Assembly (NCBI GenBank): GCA_024687205.1
Contig: JAILES010000081.1
Coordinates: 5,657 to 69,656 of the forward strand
DNA from: Lachnospiraceae bacterium
GTDB taxonomy: Bacteria > Bacillota > Clostridia > Lachnospirales > Lachnospiraceae
Length of the DNA stretch: 64,000 nt
Direction: 5' to 3'
The first letter of the stretch is position 1. Each line of letters begins with the position of its first letter. Below the pieces are notes generated by a model, which did no database searches, had not been told where the DNA came from, and was given only the letters and a program-made list of their open reading frames with translations. The position numbers and the translations under genes were made by a program. This document shows, in pieces, positions 31,137 through 36,416 of this stretch.

Positions 31137-31165
31137 TTGCAAAGTTTAACACATCATGATAGAAT
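31137..31165 (+). promoter_or_regulatory. SigA promoter of the leader-GNAT transcript
   Basis: TTGCAA, 17 nt with TG extension, TAGAAT. Confidence 0.7.
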
Positions 31166-31191
31166 AACGCAACAACGAAAGGAAGCACACA

Positions 31192-31281
31192 ATGTTAAAT
31201 AACAAAAACCTGAAACTGTATAGCTACTATTATCTTCCCGAAAACAGGAAGCTTATTGCTGTGCAGTCTGACAGGAGATAA
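31192..31281 (+). CDS. Putative leader peptide MLNNKNLKLYSYYYLPENRKLIAVQSDRR (29 aa)
   Basis: RBS GAAAGGAAG. Lies between the promoter and a terminator, and its 3' end is complementary to the terminator 5' arm. Confidence 0.65.
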   Translation: MLNNKNLKLYSYYYLPENRKLIAVQSDRR

Positions 31282-31315
31282 TAAGAAGCAAAGAACAAAA
31301 CATGTTTCTTAAGAC

Positions 31316-31342
31316 CGTCTGCATAGCGCAGGCGTTTTTTTT
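31316..31342 (+). terminator. Intrinsic terminator (attenuator) upstream of GNAT
   Basis: CGTCTGC-ATAGC-GCAGGCG followed by T8, ~30 nt before the GNAT start. Confidence 0.8.
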
Positions 31343-31371
31343 ATACAACATTTCAAAAGGAGGAAACAAAA

Positions 31372-31839
31372 ATGATCATCAGATTTGCAAAAGAAAACGA
31401 ACTTGAACGGGTTAATGAACTGAGGAAGCAGGTAAATGATCTGCATGTTGCCGGAAAGCCCGATGTATTCAAGCCCGGTTTCGGACCGGAGCTGCGTGAT
31501 TTTATCAACGTGATCTGGAACGATCCCACCGAAAACATCGTTGTAGCCGATGATGAAGGTTTTATCTGCGGTTTTGCCGTGATCAATCACATCACTAAAC
31601 CTGAATCCCCGTTCATGAAAGAGCGCGATTTCCTGGACATCGATGAATTCTGCGTGGATGAAGAACACCGCAGGAAAGGCGTAGCCACTGCCATGATCGA
31701 ATTCATAAAGGATTTTGCAAAGGAAAACGGCTTTCGCCGGATCGAACTGAATATGTGGGAATTTAATCAGGGAGCACTGGCCTTCTACGAAGCAGCCGGC
31801 TTTGAAACCTTCCGCCGTTACATGGAAATGTTTCTCTGA
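31372..31839 (+). CDS. GNAT family N-acetyltransferase
   Basis: FCVDEEHRRKGVATAMI acetyl-CoA motif, N..ALAFYE..GF. Confidence 0.9.
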   Translation: MIIRFAKENELERVNELRKQVNDLHVAGKPDVFKPGFGPELRDFINVIWNDPTENIVVADDEGFICGFAVINHITKPESPFMKERDFLDIDEFCVDEEHRRKGVATAMIEFIKDFAKENGFRRIELNMWEFNQGALAFYEAAGFETFRRYMEMFL

Positions 31840-31847
31840 TTCTACAA

Positions 31848-31890
31848 TGGGGACGGTTCGGACAGATCACAGAACCGTCCCCACGGTTGA
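31848..31890. repeat. REP-like hairpin between convergent genes
   Basis: TGGGGACGGTTC-N12-GAACCGTCCCCA-CGGTTGA. Confidence 0.8.
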
Positions 31891-33258
31891 TCAGATTTTA
31901 TTACAATTTGTTTCGTCGTATGTCAGAGTGTTGTCATCGAATATGAAATGCGTCCATCTCATCTTCATGCTGAATCTGTCTTCACCGATGGGATAAAGTT
32001 TGGCGGTGAAGTCCCTTCCGTCCTCATCAACACCTTTGGCATAAAGATCGTCGTCTTTCATGAACACTTCATTAATGATAAGTTCGGCATCTTCGGGATG
32101 ATCATACTTTCCGCAGAAGGATCCCCACTTGGATCTGTCGGGATCTTTAAGGCTTTCATCCTCTATGGTAGTAACAGCACCCGGCTCCTTATCCATTGCG
32201 ATCGCACGCATACCGTTCCAGAGAGCTGCGTCTGCCCTTGCATCCTTCGATTCACGACATCCCATAAAGATAAGCACTCTGTCAGCATCGACATAACGTT
32301 CATACCAGGTATTGAGACCCGGCATACCGCCACCATGTTTCACGATCATTCCGAATTCAGGATCATTTTTGATCTCCCAGCCAAAACCGTAACCATCCCT
32401 GTCTTCATCGGCCCCTGATATACTTCCGTCATTAAGCTTAACCGTGCTGTACATTATTTTCTGTTCTTCCGAAGTCAGTACCTTTTCTTCTCGTAAAGCC
32501 CTGTCCCAGATGAACATATCAAAGATATCCGTATACACATAATCGTCTCCGTTAAGCCCGTCAAAAGCTATCACATCTCTGTCATTCGATTCTTCAACAG
32601 GAATATGCCTGCCGTCTTTCACAACCATATTACGGGCAGTATTATCATGAGGAATGCCTTCTGTCCAAATGTGGTGCACAGCGGTATGGTACATTCCCGC
32701 AGGTTCAAAAACATTCTTACACAAGTATTCCTCGAAAGGGATGCCCGCTGCTTTTTCTATGATCATCGCCAGCAGATTATATCCGCCGTTGGTGTATTCA
32801 AATTCTTCACCCGGCGCAAAGCACGGCTCTTCACCGTTCTCGGTAAGAAAGTGTATTACCGCATCGCTGCCCGGCACTTTCTTCTCTTCCTTCCACTTCC
32901 TGACGATCCAGTTATCTTCATCATAAGTTTCCGGAATGCCCCCGGTGTGCGTAAGAAGGTTCCTTATAGTCACTCCCGGATACGGAATCTCCGGATAATA
33001 CTTCGTAACCTCATCCTCAAGACTTAACAGTCCGTCTCTTACAAGGAGCATCACCGCTGCTGCCGTAAACTGCTTGGTTATCGACGCCAGCTCGAAAACA
33101 CTGTCTTCCCGCATCGGCAGTTTATCCGAAAAATCGCGGAATCCCTCTGCTCCCTTGCTTATGATCTTTCCTTTTTCTGCATACAGCCAGGTACCGTTGA
33201 ACGCCCCTTTTTCATATGCCTCATGTGTCAGCTTTTCAAATAAAGCTTTCTTATCCAT
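31891..33258 (-). CDS. Serine hydrolase, beta-lactamase/AmpC-like family, with a C-terminal extension
   Basis: SITK (SxxK), YTN (YxN), HGG, LLTHTGG; no signal peptide. Confidence 0.85.
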   Translation of the reverse strand: MDKKALFEKLTHEAYEKGAFNGTWLYAEKGKIISKGAEGFRDFSDKLPMREDSVFELASITKQFTAAAVMLLVRDGLLSLEDEVTKYYPEIPYPGVTIRNLLTHTGGIPETYDEDNWIVRKWKEEKKVPGSDAVIHFLTENGEEPCFAPGEEFEYTNGGYNLLAMIIEKAAGIPFEEYLCKNVFEPAGMYHTAVHHIWTEGIPHDNTARNMVVKDGRHIPVEESNDRDVIAFDGLNGDDYVYTDIFDMFIWDRALREEKVLTSEEQKIMYSTVKLNDGSISGADEDRDGYGFGWEIKNDPEFGMIVKHGGGMPGLNTWYERYVDADRVLIFMGCRESKDARADAALWNGMRAIAMDKEPGAVTTIEDESLKDPDRSKWGSFCGKYDHPEDAELIINEVFMKDDDLYAKGVDEDGRDFTAKLYPIGEDRFSMKMRWTHFIFDDNTLTYDETNCNKI

Positions 33259-33276
33259 AAATTCCTCCTCGATCAG

Positions 33277-33840
33277 TTAAATATTTGCATTGATCTCCTT
33301 GACGATCTCCAATATCTCGATATCTCCATCTGCAAGGATCTCCACGATCGGATCCTGTCCGTCTTCATTTGCGCCGTTCTGCCAGTAGATCTCCGCCATA
33401 CGAAGGTTTTCTTCTTCAGAAATACAGCCGTCAAAACACTTATACGCATCGCCTTCATAACAACGTCCGGAAACTTTTATCTTTGCAATCCCATAAGTCG
33501 GGCGTCCCAGCTTTGCAAAATACTCTCCCCAGCGCTCAGCTTCCTCAAGGGTCTTTGATACATATAAAGAAGCCATACGTGAAGGGTACTGCGGATACTT
33601 TTCTTTCCGGACTTTTTCAAGCGCCAGTTCCCTTAAAGCCACATCAACCGCGTGGCTCAATTCCGTATCTTTATACTTATCAGGATTACGGTAGATATCT
33701 TCAACCGTTTCTATCTGTTCATAAACACGTTTATGGATACCGTTTGGATGATCTTCATCCAACAGGATATGTTCTCCTGCCTTCTTCGGGATATCCGATA
33801 TAACGTGATAATATATACTCTCCATCATAACCCTCTTCAT
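33277..33840 (-). CDS. DUF2441-like protein (start may be ATG at 33828 or 33825)
   Basis: YYHV..RELALEKVRKEKYPQYPSRMASLYVS pattern. Confidence 0.7.
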   Translation of the reverse strand: MKRVMMESIYYHVISDIPKKAGEHILLDEDHPNGIHKRVYEQIETVEDIYRNPDKYKDTELSHAVDVALRELALEKVRKEKYPQYPSRMASLYVSKTLEEAERWGEYFAKLGRPTYGIAKIKVSGRCYEGDAYKCFDGCISEEENLRMAEIYWQNGANEDGQDPIVEILADGDIEILEIVKEINANI

Positions 33841-33844
33841 TTTT

Positions 33845-33876
33845 GAAAAAGGGCCGGCATCTCATAACCGGCCCTT
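33845..33876 (-). terminator. Intrinsic terminator at the end of the DUF1062 gene
   Basis: AAGGGCCGG-N10-CCGGCCCTT followed by a T run on the minus strand. Confidence 0.7.
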
Positions 33877-34188
33877 CATTAATTCAGCTTTGTTATTTTT
33901 CAAAAAATCAATATCTCTGCCATATGCATAGGCAGCTTCCTCATCATTAGCCTGAAAAGCTTCAAACAACTCCGTCGGGATCTTTCCCGGCCTAGTCCTT
34001 TCATAGATAGTAAGATTCCAGGAATGCTTGCATTTTTTGCAGCGGTAGATCAGCCACACATCCACGCCGTTACCGTTTGCATTTACCCTGAATCTTCCGG
34101 AATTAACAAATTCCCGTTTCTTACCGCAGCCTCCGCATTTATGACATATCCGGATCGCAGCGGATTCAGACTGCCGAAACGCCATCAT
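33862..34188 (-). CDS. DUF1062-like protein
   Basis: C..C..GRFRVNANG..VDVWLIYRC..C.HSWN..IYER. Confidence 0.75.
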   Translation of the reverse strand: MMAFRQSESAAIRICHKCGGCGKKREFVNSGRFRVNANGNGVDVWLIYRCKKCKHSWNLTIYERTRPGKIPTELFEAFQANDEEAAYAYGRDIDFLKNNKAELMKGRL

Positions 34189-34456
34189 TCATGGCCATGC
34201 GCTGATCCCGCAGTATCCTCTGAATGCTTTTTTCGGATAAAGAAAAACTCTGAGCCAGTTCTTTTAAACTGCGTCCTTTTTTATATGTTTTATATATCTT
34301 CTCGTTGCGTTCGCGAAAATATGTCTTTGCAGCAGTTCTGCTGCCCCATTCGAGTTTTTCTTTTGATGGTATATAAATTGACTTTCCTTCTACATATTGC
34401 TGAATCGTTTCTATTAATTCTTTGGGCAGTATAGTCTCTGCCTTTATATAGCTCAT
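34166..34456 (-). CDS. CD3324-family (Mor-like HTH) protein
   Basis: MSYIKAETILPKELIETIQQYVEGKSIYIP..RNEKIY..LAQSFSLSEKSIQRI; RBS GGAGGAGG. Confidence 0.8.
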   Translation of the reverse strand: MSYIKAETILPKELIETIQQYVEGKSIYIPSKEKLEWGSRTAAKTYFRERNEKIYKTYKKGRSLKELAQSFSLSEKSIQRILRDQRMAMNDGVSAV

Positions 34457-34487
34457 AATCCTCCTCCAAAATATAAAACAGGGATTC

Positions 34488-34536
34488 GTCTGAGCTTACG
34501 ATTCATTCGGTTTATTTAAGCTCAGACTACTGAGCG
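34488..34536 (-). promoter_or_regulatory. Alternative-hairpin attenuator upstream of the CD3324 gene
   Basis: GTCTGAGCTTA/TAAGCTCAGAC arms (34517-34527, 34488-34498). The leader's GCTCAG can compete for CTGAGC. Confidence 0.6.
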
Positions 34537-34556
34537 ATAATAAGTCTTCTGGTCAT
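34527..34556 (-). CDS. Putative leader peptide MTRRLIIAQ (9 aa)
   Basis: Strong RBS AAGAAAGGAG. The stop codon abuts an 11-bp perfect inverted repeat. Confidence 0.6.
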   Translation of the reverse strand: MTRRLIIAQ

Positions 34557-34603
34557 AAAAACTATGCTCCTTTCTTAACTGCTTAACTACATATCTGTTT
34601 ACG

Positions 34604-34632
34604 ATTATACAAAACAGCTTAGTACGTTTCAA
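34604..34632 (-). promoter_or_regulatory. SigA promoter of the leader-CD3324 transcript
   Basis: TTGAAA, 17 nt, TATAAT. Confidence 0.7.
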
Positions 34633-34666
34633 GCTCAAGAATATTTCCAAACGAACTTGCGCCATT

Positions 34667-36109
34667 CTATACATCCAGGCCGTATTTCTTCCGCTGTTTT
34701 ACCAATACGGAGATCTGCTTTTTCTTGGCATAGTTCCTGTGATTTTCTGCACCAAGACTTTTGTACAGTATATATCTCTCCATCGATAAAGTACCGTCTT
34801 CCAGTGCTTTCTTTATAGCACAGCCCGGTTCGGTATCATGCCTGCAGTCGCTGAACTTACACCGGCTCTCAAGTTCAAGGATATCCGAAAAAATATTGTC
34901 TAAGCTTTCTTCTGTCAGTGCCATTCCTATCTCGCGCATTCCCGGAGTATCAATGATCGACACTCCGTTTTCAAGCTCTATCAGCTGTCTGTAGGTAGTG
35001 GTATGGCGGCCTTTAGAATCTGATTCCCTGATCGCCGAAGTTTTCATGGTCTCTTCACCCGTAAGCGAATTAAGCAGTGTCGACTTGCCTGCACCTGAGG
35101 ATCCCATCAGACAAATAGTCGTACCGGGTGTAAGGTACTCTTTCAGTTCGTCCATGCCTATATCATACAGGGCTGATATGGCATGTACCCTGATCTTATC
35201 CGATATGGTCTCCACCTCACTCACATAACGGCCGACGTTATTGCACAGATCCGCTTTCGTAAGTATGGCAACCGGTATCGCGCCTCCCTGCAGAGCTACA
35301 CTTGCATACCTCGCTATGCGGTTATAACTGTAGTCATCATTCAGCGAGGTGACGATGAAACAGTAGTCCACGTTTGCTACCATATACTGCATCACACCTG
35401 TTTTGGACTGATCCGGTCTCTGCAAAAAGCTCTTTCTTTCACAGACGGAAAGTATCCTGCTGTCACCGTCCGGGTTAAACTTAAATGTCACATAGTCACC
35501 GACTACCGGAAGTTTATCAGCCTCTTCTTCATAAAAATCTCTGATCAGTACTGCCGGCAGTTCCCGGCCCATAAACTTTATGGAATAGCGGTTCTTCTGA
35601 ACCTCGCAGATCCTTCCGGTTTTTTCTTTCCCCAGTTCCATATAGGTAAAAACTGTCGGATCCTCTCCCTGTGCGATCACATGCTCCGGCATTTCTTTTT
35701 GGACAAAACCCAGCCTGCGGTATAAAGCTATTGCCCTGATGTTAGCCGGACGTGGATCTACCCACACTGTTTCAGCTCCGTTTTTAAAGGCTTCTTCTAT
35801 AGAGTGTTCCAACGCCCGGGTTGCGATACCCCGTCCCCATGCAGACTTAAACAGTTTGATATCCAAAGCTGCGCTATGTGTAGCTTCATCTATCCCATAT
35901 TGTGTCTCTCCGCAATATTTACCGTCTTCAAAGATTGAATAATGCTTTTGCATCGGTCCGGCATTGATAAATCTGTCCAGCCATTCCCGTACAGCGTCCT
36001 CTGTTTCATGTAAGCCTCCGGGCCAGATATACTTCATAACATCTTCATCAGCCCAAAGACTCTGAATATTCCTGATATCATCATAAGTTGATTCTTTAAT
36101 TGTGATCAT
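34667..36109 (-). CDS. Fusion: RimJ/RimL-type GNAT + RsgA-family circularly permuted GTPase
   Basis: aa 1-160 GNAT (WGRGIATRAL, N.RAIALYRRLGF). Then VVGDYV, ANVD, TKAD, GSSGAGKST, GRHTT, DTPG, CKFSDCRHDTEPGC. Confidence 0.85.
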   Translation of the reverse strand: MITIKESTYDDIRNIQSLWADEDVMKYIWPGGLHETEDAVREWLDRFINAGPMQKHYSIFEDGKYCGETQYGIDEATHSAALDIKLFKSAWGRGIATRALEHSIEEAFKNGAETVWVDPRPANIRAIALYRRLGFVQKEMPEHVIAQGEDPTVFTYMELGKEKTGRICEVQKNRYSIKFMGRELPAVLIRDFYEEEADKLPVVGDYVTFKFNPDGDSRILSVCERKSFLQRPDQSKTGVMQYMVANVDYCFIVTSLNDDYSYNRIARYASVALQGGAIPVAILTKADLCNNVGRYVSEVETISDKIRVHAISALYDIGMDELKEYLTPGTTICLMGSSGAGKSTLLNSLTGEETMKTSAIRESDSKGRHTTTYRQLIELENGVSIIDTPGMREIGMALTEESLDNIFSDILELESRCKFSDCRHDTEPGCAIKKALEDGTLSMERYILYKSLGAENHRNYAKKKQISVLVKQRKKYGLDV

Positions 36110-36219
36110 TTTTTCCTCCGATCATTAACACATACTTCCCTTTTCAGACACACTGTCATAAAAAGGGATAAAACAATAAAACGATTTTGTCTTAAAACCT
36201 CGGGATTGAAAATGGACAT

Positions 36220-36249
36220 AAAAATACCGTGACGGGAATGCCACGGTCC
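36220..36249 (-). terminator. Terminator-like hairpin in the leader of the GNAT-RsgA gene
   Basis: ACCGTG-GCATTCCCGT-CACGGT followed by ATTTTT. Confidence 0.6.
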
Positions 36250-36279
36250 TATGATTTCAAAAGAATTATTCTTATCAGA

Positions 36280-36351
36280 TCAATATGCACAAACCGAGGT
36301 CTTCATACCATATTCACTTGCAATCTCTGTTCTGTTTACACGCATAATCAT
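36280..36351 (-). CDS. Putative leader peptide MIMRVNRTEIASEYGMKTSVCAY (23 aa)
   Basis: RBS GCGAGGT. Lies between a promoter and a terminator hairpin. Confidence 0.55.
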   Translation of the reverse strand: MIMRVNRTEIASEYGMKTSVCAY

Positions 36352-36387
36352 GAATACCTCGCTTTCTTCAAAATTTATTTCCTGCAA

Positions 36388-36416
36388 ATAATAACAAAGA
36401 GTATCAGACTTGTCAA
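36388..36416 (-). promoter_or_regulatory. SigA promoter of the leader-GNAT/RsgA transcript
   Basis: TTGACA, 17 nt with TG extension, TATTAT. Confidence 0.7.

Follow-up and report, generated by a model that had tools for sequence, protein, structure and literature searches.

The locus and its leader

The leader described here lies in the 210 nt that separate a GNAT-RsgA fusion gene (34667-36109) from a gene for a 96-aa protein within the window, by which we mean the whole 64,000-nt stretch of Lachnospiraceae DNA that was analysed. All leader features are on the minus strand and their positions are collected in Table 1. The 96-aa protein scores 102.4 bits against NF040785, the profile of the CD3324 family (cut-off 65), and 34.8 bits against Pfam Mor (E = 1.7e-8, cut-off 24.9). 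The top fold matches of its AlphaFold model are the phage Mu proteins C and Mor, although these are weak at E = 0.06-0.6 and a TM-score of about 0.4. By these profile matches the product is a CD3324-family protein, a small Mor/C-like helix-turn-helix (HTH) protein. Its stop codon is overlapped by a DUF1062 gene (33862-34188), which is followed at gaps of 18-21 nt by a DUF2441 gene (33277-33840) and a gene for a serine hydrolase of the beta-lactamase fold (31891-33258).

The consensus-like promoter, the strong ribosome-binding site and the 9-codon open reading frame (uORF) that had been proposed in the initial annotation are all present, and in most relatives the -10 element stands at the same distance. 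The hairpin is indeed a perfect one of 11 pairs, but it does not abut the stop codon as had been described; the G of the stop is the first base of the stem, and the two overlap. The alternative pairing suggested for the last two sense codons also stands, GCTCAG being the exact complement of CTGAGC (34525-34520) in the 5′ arm. The repeated words are CUGAGCUUA in segment 2 and UAAGCUCAG in segment 3. The hairpin occurs once in the whole genome, which argues against a repeat or mobile element. Additional ORFs, starting from the AUG in the loop or just past segment 3, were considered and rejected: they have no Shine-Dalgarno (SD) sequence, the loop AUG is ACG or UUG in many relatives, and their frame with respect to the main gene is not constant. 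Taken alone, the sequence has a fold z-score of only -2.13, and the weight of evidence was therefore placed on comparison.

Table 1. Positions of the leader features and neighboring genes in the window
Feature	Position	Strand	Remarks
Conserved promoter box	34627-34663	-	Ends in the -35 hexamer; consensus across homologous loci
Sigma-70-type promoter	34604-34632	-	TTGAAA 34632-34627, 17-nt spacer, TATAAT 34609-34604; 11 of 12 matches
SD sequence of the leader ORF, AAGGAG	34567-34572	-	GAAAGGAGCAU block at least 90% conserved (alignment A3)
Leader ORF (uORF) MTRRLIIAQ, 9 codons and TAG	34527-34556	-	ATG 34556-34554, TAG 34529-34527
Segment 1, GCUCAG (codons 8-9)	34530-34535	-	Complements segments 2 and 4
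Segment 2, GUCUGAGCUUA (5′ arm of main hairpin)	34517-34527	-	2:3 pairing kept in 99.7% of cells
Hairpin loop, 18 nt	34499-34516	-	3′ half (A)UGAAUCG conserved; GAAUC at least 90%
Segment 3, UAAGCUCAGAC (3′ arm of main hairpin)	34488-34498	-	Also complements segment 4
Anti-SD strand	34474-34486	-	AAUCC and CCU.UUUUA in the window, consensus UCCUAA elsewhere; pairs with the SD in local folds
Ribosome-binding site of the CD3324 gene, GGAGGAGG and spacer	34457-34468	-	Sequestered by the anti-SD strand in local folds
Segment 4, AUGAGCU (start codon, Ser2 AGC, first base of Tyr3)	34450-34456	-	Complements segments 1 and 3
Regulated gene, CD3324 family, 96 aa	34166-34456	-	NF040785 and Pfam Mor matches
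Downstream genes, tightly packed	31891-34188	-	DUF1062, DUF2441, serine hydrolase

Conservation of the leader ORF and of the pairing segments

The comparison set consisted of 80 loci encoding CD3324 homologues with 54-90% protein identity, from Lachnospiraceae, Oscillospiraceae, Christensenellales and metagenome-assembled genomes labelled Erysipelotrichaceae and Spirochaetales; 75 of these loci have enough upstream DNA, and denominators of 75 refer to them unless genes are named. Cultured strains are represented by Pseudobutyrivibrio xylanivorans DSM 14809 (L028), Butyrivibrio sp. AE3009 (L025) and Lachnospiraceae bacterium NK4A179 (L014). A 9-codon uORF that ends one base before CUGAGC is present in 68 of the 75, and a 6-codon in-frame version occurs in three more (two distinct sequences). 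Closer to the window, a search at the DNA level through 40 relatives turned up the leader in three sister genomes, the most divergent of which (78% identity) keeps the length and frame of the ORF with six of the nine residues changed.

Residues were counted over 43 distinct uORF sequences. Position 4 is Arg or Lys in all 43, encoded by AGA, AGG, CGT, CGA, AAA or AAG, and position 6 is Val or Ile in all 43, encoded by GTT, GTA, GTG or ATT. Between them stands Tyr (25 sequences), Val (10), Leu (3) or Phe (2), and the stop is TAG in 41 sequences, with TAA and TGA once each. Entropies at the first, second and third codon positions are 0.51, 1.07 and 1.28, the third positions being the most variable. 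Since the residue class at positions 4 and 6 is unchanged although several synonymous codons are used, selection appears to act on the peptide, and the pattern is, as far as alignments can tell, that of an ORF which is translated and in which the peptide itself counts. In codons 8-9 (GCU CAG) it is the nucleotide sequence that is frozen, in keeping with a role as a pairing segment. On evolutionary evidence, the leader would thus contain a short translated ORF with its own ribosome-binding site, and the conservation upstream of CD3324 homologues extends to the ORF, its length, its stop, its SD sequence and all of the pairing segments.

The main hairpin is kept in 75 of 75 loci, with loops of 13-21 nt. 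Four pairings can be drawn among the segments (1:2, 2:3, 3:4 and 1:4), and each holds in 98.8%–99.7% of cells, with 1:2 at 98.8% and 1:4 at 98.9%. These predicted pairings are mutually exclusive alternatives among the four segments. Compensatory changes are few: there is one in the 2:3 stem and one in 1:4, in locus L055, where GCCCAG faces AUGGGC. The one-sided changes in the 2:3 stem all give G-U on the transcript strand, those in the other helices give G-U or U-G, and the closing pair of 2:3 is G-U in 46 of 70 sequences. With stems that hardly vary, covariation is unable to separate 1:2, 1:4, 2:3 and 3:4. Our explanation for the scarcity of covariation is a chain of constraints that runs across the segments, in which segment 4 is bound by the start codon and by the Ser and Tyr codons, segment 3 has to match segment 4, segment 2 has to match segment 3, and segment 1 has to match both 2 and 4. 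The conserved GAAUC repeats of the loop and the junction are a separate feature that the four-segment model does not account for.

The same words could also be read as DNA. Downstream of the promoter, GCTCAG-N4-CTGAGC forms a perfect 6-4-6 palindrome, its arms are invariant and the gene product is an HTH protein, so that the words might be operators for such a protein, for example for self-repression of CD3324 by a roadblock, with the ORF being incidental. However, the one-sided changes, always G-U on the transcript strand, are C-A mismatches on the other strand, and the spacing of the long inverted repeat is variable; thus, selection appears to act on an RNA on the transcript strand and not on a DNA palindrome that is read by a protein. 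The coding signature of the uORF does not fit incidental sequence either, and neither do two observations set out below, namely that the start codon holds a fourth copy of the word, which accompanies the leader when other genes stand behind it, and that the RNA logic of distant leaders is the same although the words differ. We consider operators very unlikely.

This fourth segment, AUGAGCU, was missed in the initial annotation. It complements both segment 3 (AGCUCA) and segment 1 (GCUCA). Among 75 distinct genes, Ser2 is encoded by AGC in 71 of the 72 cases in which it is Ser; the other invariant serines of the protein use four synonymous codons, or AGC and AGT at 54:9. A metagenome scan with nothing but a 19-nt word spanning segments 1-2 retrieved over 120 contigs, drawn from rumen, human-gut and bioreactor samples. 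Nearly all of the 59 distinct regions precede an ORF that starts MSYI[K/R]AE, and the exceptions, a DUF1062-like ORF in four contigs or unrelated ORFs, still begin AUGAGC. The start-codon word therefore seems to belong to the leader module, since ORFs other than CD3324 also carry it when they stand behind the leader.

More distant CD3324 leaders (L090, L107 and L116) follow the same design with a different word pair, GCUAU/AUAGC, which is present at the end of the uORF, in both arms of the hairpin and in AUGAGCUAU. The distant uORFs read MTGYVIYA on a C. estertheticum plasmid, MRNPIVSVA in L107 and MGVIISVQ in L116. In L107 and L116 the predicted minimum free energy (MFE) structure is 1:2 plus a long 3:4 helix that encloses the anti-SD hairpin, and blocking the end of the uORF switches the fold to 2:3; L090 folds differently.

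Probable translation control and the proposed mechanism

The initial annotation noted that the U-tract is offset from the stem and left open whether termination or translation is controlled. The offset is real, but the U-rich run (34478-34468) pairs in local folds with the downstream GGAGGAGG ribosome-binding site, and relatives do not keep it as a U-tract. Their hairpin is followed by GAAUCCUAA, a loop and UUAGGAGGAGC, with no U-run. Three pairs of the corresponding anti-SD:SD helix (UCCUAA with UUAGGA) have changes on both sides, as in UCCCGA/UUGGGA and UCCUAU/AUAGGA. The helix of the window has drifted: G-U pairs join CCU.UUUUA to UGGAG.AGG, and the partner of AAUCC is a GGAUU that is specific to the window and immediately precedes the AUG. 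The offset U-tract would thus be the strand that hides the CD3324 ribosome-binding site, and control would therefore act on translation.

Leader-peptide transcription attenuation is used by bmrCD, vmlR, tlrB and ytbDE in Bacillus (PMC13689557), and the window does have U-runs 10-20 nt past the stem, so that the hairpin and a nearby U-run might terminate transcription unless a ribosome prevents it. This is the least likely of the alternatives that we weighed. No terminator-like site is found in 33800-35000 and the leader shows no intrinsic terminator or antiterminator of the trp/his, bmrCD or vmlR type; the U-run is offset, pairs with the SD in the window and is absent in relatives, which have CCUAA...UUAGG in its place. 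With no terminator, a U-tract that is not conserved and an anti-SD:SD helix that covaries, the question of termination versus translation can now be answered, on this evidence, in favor of predicted translation control.

The effect of a ribosome on the uORF was modelled by masking, in each of 63 distinct leaders, the nucleotides from -12 to +13 relative to the first base in the P site and computing the energy needed to open the CD3324 start region (-14 to +12). In these folding models the free RNA needs a mean of 9.3 kcal/mol to open. A ribosome whose P site is at codons 4-7 lowers this mean to 7.3-7.9 kcal/mol, and one at codons 8-9 raises it to 10.9-11.2 kcal/mol; the pattern is the same with the leading edge at +11, +13 or +15. 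At edges of +11 and +15, the minimum over codons 4-7 lies below the free value in 87%–94% of leaders and below the terminating value in 97%–100%. The modelled gain from stalling is modest, about 2 kcal/mol relative to free RNA, and about 7 kcal/mol of the anti-SD helix remains.

Which fold prevails in the absence of a ribosome varies by locus. Folds containing 2:3 are preferred in the window and in L053, and 1:2 plus 3:4 in L020, L107 and L116. For the window, the 2:3-containing folds come to -36.7 and -36.6 kcal/mol versus -31.2 kcal/mol for 1:2 plus 3:4. Since the latter is 5.5 kcal/mol worse, the ground state of the window is probably a three-way junction (1:4 plus 2:3), which is also the structure that RNAalifold picks.

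That RNAalifold settles on the junction, isoenergetic with the MFE structure in the window, would equally suit a structured RNA that acts as a sensor with no need of ribosome arrest, in which the junction binds a protein or a small ligand and so sets access to the ribosome-binding site. Candidate proteins would be the zinc-ribbon DUF1062 product or, in autoregulation, CD3324 itself. It would also give a role to loop and junction bases that are at least 90% conserved and have none in the four-segment model, and to stems that are far more invariant than pairing alone demands. We nevertheless hold such a sensor to be improbable, as it leaves the strong SD, the fixed 9-codon frame, the kept stop and the peptide conservation at positions 4-6 unexplained. 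In distant leaders the loop sequence is lost while the uORF and the segment logic persist, and Rfam returned no match in the leader at E values up to 10 and none at the gathering level in 14 related loci.

Drawing on the anatomy of the leader, its conservation, the selection on its peptide, the covariation of the anti-SD helix and the modelled energetics, we favor, with a probability of about 0.6, an ermC-type translational attenuator in which one complementary word pair is used four times; the ribosome arrest itself, its inducer and the target of the regulator are what we infer. The conserved ORF and pairings support the leader-peptide switch of the initial annotation, in which ribosome position would choose between exclusive folds; the lack of conservation that was to speak against it is clearly not seen. 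The strong promoter would start the transcript, and ribosomes would load on the good SD and translate the 9-codon leader ORF. When no ribosome is on segment 1, the RNA would fold into 1:2 plus 3:4 or into the three-way junction of 1:4 plus 2:3. Whichever way the RNA folds, the start codon would have a partner, since segments 1 and 3 share a word and segments 2 and 4 carry its complement. In both of these ribosome-free folds, the local anti-SD helix would cover the ribosome-binding site and the CD3324 gene would be poorly translated. A terminating ribosome would cover segments 1 and 2, leaving segment 3 free to clamp the start codon, and the gene would again be off. Only a ribosome arrested with its P site at codons 4-7 would turn the gene on: it would cover segment 1 but leave 2:3 in place, segment 4 would be without a partner and CD3324 would be translated. 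Arg/Lys4, Tyr/Val5 and Val/Ile6 would be the last residues polymerised at such an arrest, which points to an arrest that depends on the nascent peptide. The trigger would most likely be a ribosome-targeting compound.

The Mor/C-like product would then probably raise transcription of the operon through a conserved box at its own promoter. The box is about 37 bp long and consists of GGCGCAAGTT, N4, a TTATAA-like element, N6 and TTGAG[G/C]TTGAAA, so that it abuts the -35 hexamer. A script matched its consensus in 59 of 69 distinct upstream regions, 4-5 of these matches being misplaced. In a regulon search, the box occurs once in the window's own genome, and the one other match is at chance level. 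The sites of Mor/C-type activators lie immediately upstream of the -35 region. The box is therefore a candidate activator site of this type, and the regulator could plausibly activate its own promoter and with it the whole operon.

Cargo, known systems and the wider family

The genes behind the regulator are variable. A DUF1062 partner follows in 44 of the 80 loci, and GNAT, DUF2441 or serine-hydrolase cargo is found in 41 of the 80, the serine-hydrolase class including GNAT-hydrolase and DUF2441-GNAT fusions. Other cargo comprises SAM-dependent methyltransferases, an ABC exporter and a TldD/PmbA-type peptidase. On pSOL1 of C. acetobutylicum, a CD3324 gene with a uORF leader of its own stands directly upstream of a chloramphenicol acetyltransferase (CAT) gene. 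Literature searches on DUF1062 and DUF2441 yielded only the assignment of DUF2441 to the ADP-ribosyltransferase (ART) clan (PMC7955679). Full-text searches found no description of CD3324 or of this leader, and those on the Mor family together with leader peptides returned known systems only. Since no cargo protein reaches any NCBIfam cut-off for a named resistance family, an antibiotic response as the role of the leader is a reasoned guess and not a finding.

The same RNA logic would also serve a uORF that senses general translation capacity or the supply of amino acids or tRNAs, with no drug-dependent arrest. Slow decoding of Arg/Lys, Tyr, Val or Ile codons would then hold ribosomes over segment 1, and basic residues do recur at positions 2-4, for example as AGA AGA AGA in L033 and L034. 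The trp and his leaders respond to their amino acid. However, no run of one codon marks these leaders as a set, many of them having only one Arg (MTIRVV...), AGA would not be expected among the rare Arg codons of an AT-rich Firmicute, and the cargo consists of modifying enzymes, not biosynthetic genes. Although the whiB7 leader senses amino-acid (alanine) supply (bioRxiv 10.1101/2023.06.02.543512), we think it unlikely that supply is what this leader reports.

The class of mechanism is known, from ermC, cat/cmlA and toiL-topAI and, for uORF control of a regulator, from whiB7. The cat86 and cmlA leaders have 5-9 codons and only two segments, directly precede the resistance gene, and let a stalled ribosome melt the stem that hides the downstream ribosome-binding site; a short leader is common to them and to the CD3324 leader, and the leader peptides are unrelated. 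The arrest region of the ermC leader peptide, ErmCL, is hydrophobic and beta-branched, and the core of the CD3324 leader, [Y/V/F/L]-[V/I]-[I/x], loosely recalls it. As is predicted here, the ermC leader has a short translated ORF and four segments that pair as 1:2/3:4 versus 2:3, with the downstream SD and start codon hidden until the leader ribosome stalls (PMC5499644), and neither leader has a terminator. The CD3324 leader differs in having only 9 codons, the last two of which are segment 1, in using the same word in all four segments, so that 1:4 is also possible, in nesting a separate anti-SD hairpin inside, and in regulating a Mor/C-like regulator rather than an rRNA methyltransferase.

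The toiL leader of topAI-yjhQ in E. coli is alike in its very short uORF followed by a small-protein gene and then a GNAT gene, and in a structure that occludes the ribosome-binding site until stalled uORF ribosomes relieve it (PMC12121999), which for the CD3324 leader is a prediction. It responds to several classes of ribosome-targeting antibiotics, and repression of topAI also works through Rho termination inside the ORF (PMC12121999). The two leaders have no sequence or structural similarity, and the downstream proteins belong to other families. In whiB7/wblC a uORF leader controls a small, probably autoregulated activator that has drug-modifying enzymes among its targets (bioRxiv 10.1101/2023.06.02.543512; PMC7157823), and the CD3324 leader would resemble it in this, a resemblance that is functional only. 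The leader is not itself of the whiB7/wblC type: the regulator is a Mor/C-like HTH protein rather than a WhiB-like Fe-S regulator, there is no terminator, and control would fall on translation initiation. whiB7 uses transcription attenuation with a terminator and has a longer uORF.

The wider family was examined in 400 evenly sampled Bacillota genomes, or 401 when that of the window is counted, and 39 of these genomes carry a CD3324-family gene over the cut-off. A uORF preceded by an SD lies within 230 nt upstream in 27 of 32 diverse CD3324 loci versus 27% of shuffles. The peptides of these wider-family uORFs are rich in basic and in beta-branched or aromatic residues, and MKYVLARV... and MTGYVIYA repeat the Y-V motif. 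The two other CD3324 paralogues of the window's genome lie inside operons and have no such leader.

As a tentative extension, which we regard as possible but doubtful, CD3324 activators with uORF leaders could be a Bacillota-wide counterpart of WhiB7: an mRNA-borne sensor of ribosome stress that switches cassettes of drug-modifying enzymes through a portable latch of one word and four segments. The cassettes would comprise GNAT proteins, the ART-like DUF2441, serine hydrolases, methyltransferases, CAT and exporters, and the last segment of the latch, the start-codon word AUGAGC, would travel with the leader. If the attenuator model itself holds, the frozen four-segment design, anchored in a start codon, would illustrate why some structured regulatory RNAs barely covary, and M-x-x-[R/K]-[Y/V]-V would be a new short arrest peptide, whose size of 9 codons is convenient for structural work. 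Many rumen and gut Firmicutes would carry a compact sensor of ribosome arrest that controls a transcription factor, not a single resistance gene, in front of variable cassettes that modify small molecules. It would offer an entry to the functions of the CD3324, DUF1062 and DUF2441 families and to the question of which natural and veterinary translation inhibitors gut anaerobes sense.

Sequence elements of the leader region

The features discussed here are collected in the table. Most of the homologous loci, including those in MAGs of other families, have in common a box of ~37 bp at the leader promoter, which occurs only once within the window's own genome; the Mor/C-like product of the CD3324-family gene may bind there. 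A second conserved element is a direct repeat in the leader RNA: one copy lies in the hairpin loop, within its 3′ half, and the other directly 3′ of the hairpin. Across the 70 leaders compared, GAAUC is conserved at ≥90% at both copies, and none of the pairing models tried explains this conservation.

Features of the leader, its surroundings and related loci
Feature	Location	Strand	Remark
Conserved box, GGCGCAAGTT...TTGAG[G/C]TTGAAA	window 34627-34663	minus	adjoins the -35 hexamer
Direct repeat, (A)UGAAUC[G/C]UAAG-like	window 34499-34506 and 34482-34487	minus	two copies
GNAT	window 31372-31839		neighboring unit
GNAT-RsgA	window 34667-36109		neighboring unit
L086, CD3324-family gene	G000 contig C80, 1099-1749	minus	window's own genome
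L087, CD3324-family gene	contig C62		window's own genome
L089, CD3324-family gene region	C. acetobutylicum pSOL1, NC_001988.2 61507-62616

Neighboring transcription and contig ends

The units adjoining the leader operon lie within 31137-36416, and the initial annotation had proposed candidate uORF leaders of their own for both. Since no terminator-like site was found between the GNAT-RsgA gene and the CD3324 leader, read-through into the leader from that upstream side is possible. In two sister genomes, contigs break inside the leader, at the hairpin (L002, a contig end in G017, and L003, a contig start in G001), perhaps because the assembly broke at the palindrome or because the downstream cassette varies between strains.

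CD3324-family genes in other contexts

The window's genome carries two more CD3324-family genes (L086 and L087), each directly 3′ of another ORF, and the leader is absent upstream of both. The L086 protein is longer (216 aa), and the gene that follows it encodes Peptidase_S51 and methyltransferase domains, the latter a weak RrnaAD-type match. On pSOL1, the CD3324-family gene at L089 has a uORF of 19 codons with an SD and is followed directly 3′ by a gene for chloramphenicol acetyltransferase (Pfam CAT, E = 1e-55).

Genes carried behind the leader

In four metagenome contigs (L168, L180, L184 and L186), a DUF1062-like gene (protein MSF/MSL...HRCGGCG) lies immediately 3′ of the window's type of leader in the absence of a CD3324 gene, and the DUF1062-like ORF retains the AUGAGC start; the leader thus behaves as a portable module. 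Among the closest relatives of the window, the cargo 3′ of DUF1062 differs: in L006 a 487-aa beta-lactamase-fold gene comes straight after DUF1062, without DUF2441, whereas DUF2441 is present downstream of DUF1062 in both L007 and the window. These differences in cargo indicate a cassette-like turnover behind a leader-regulator module that stays constant.
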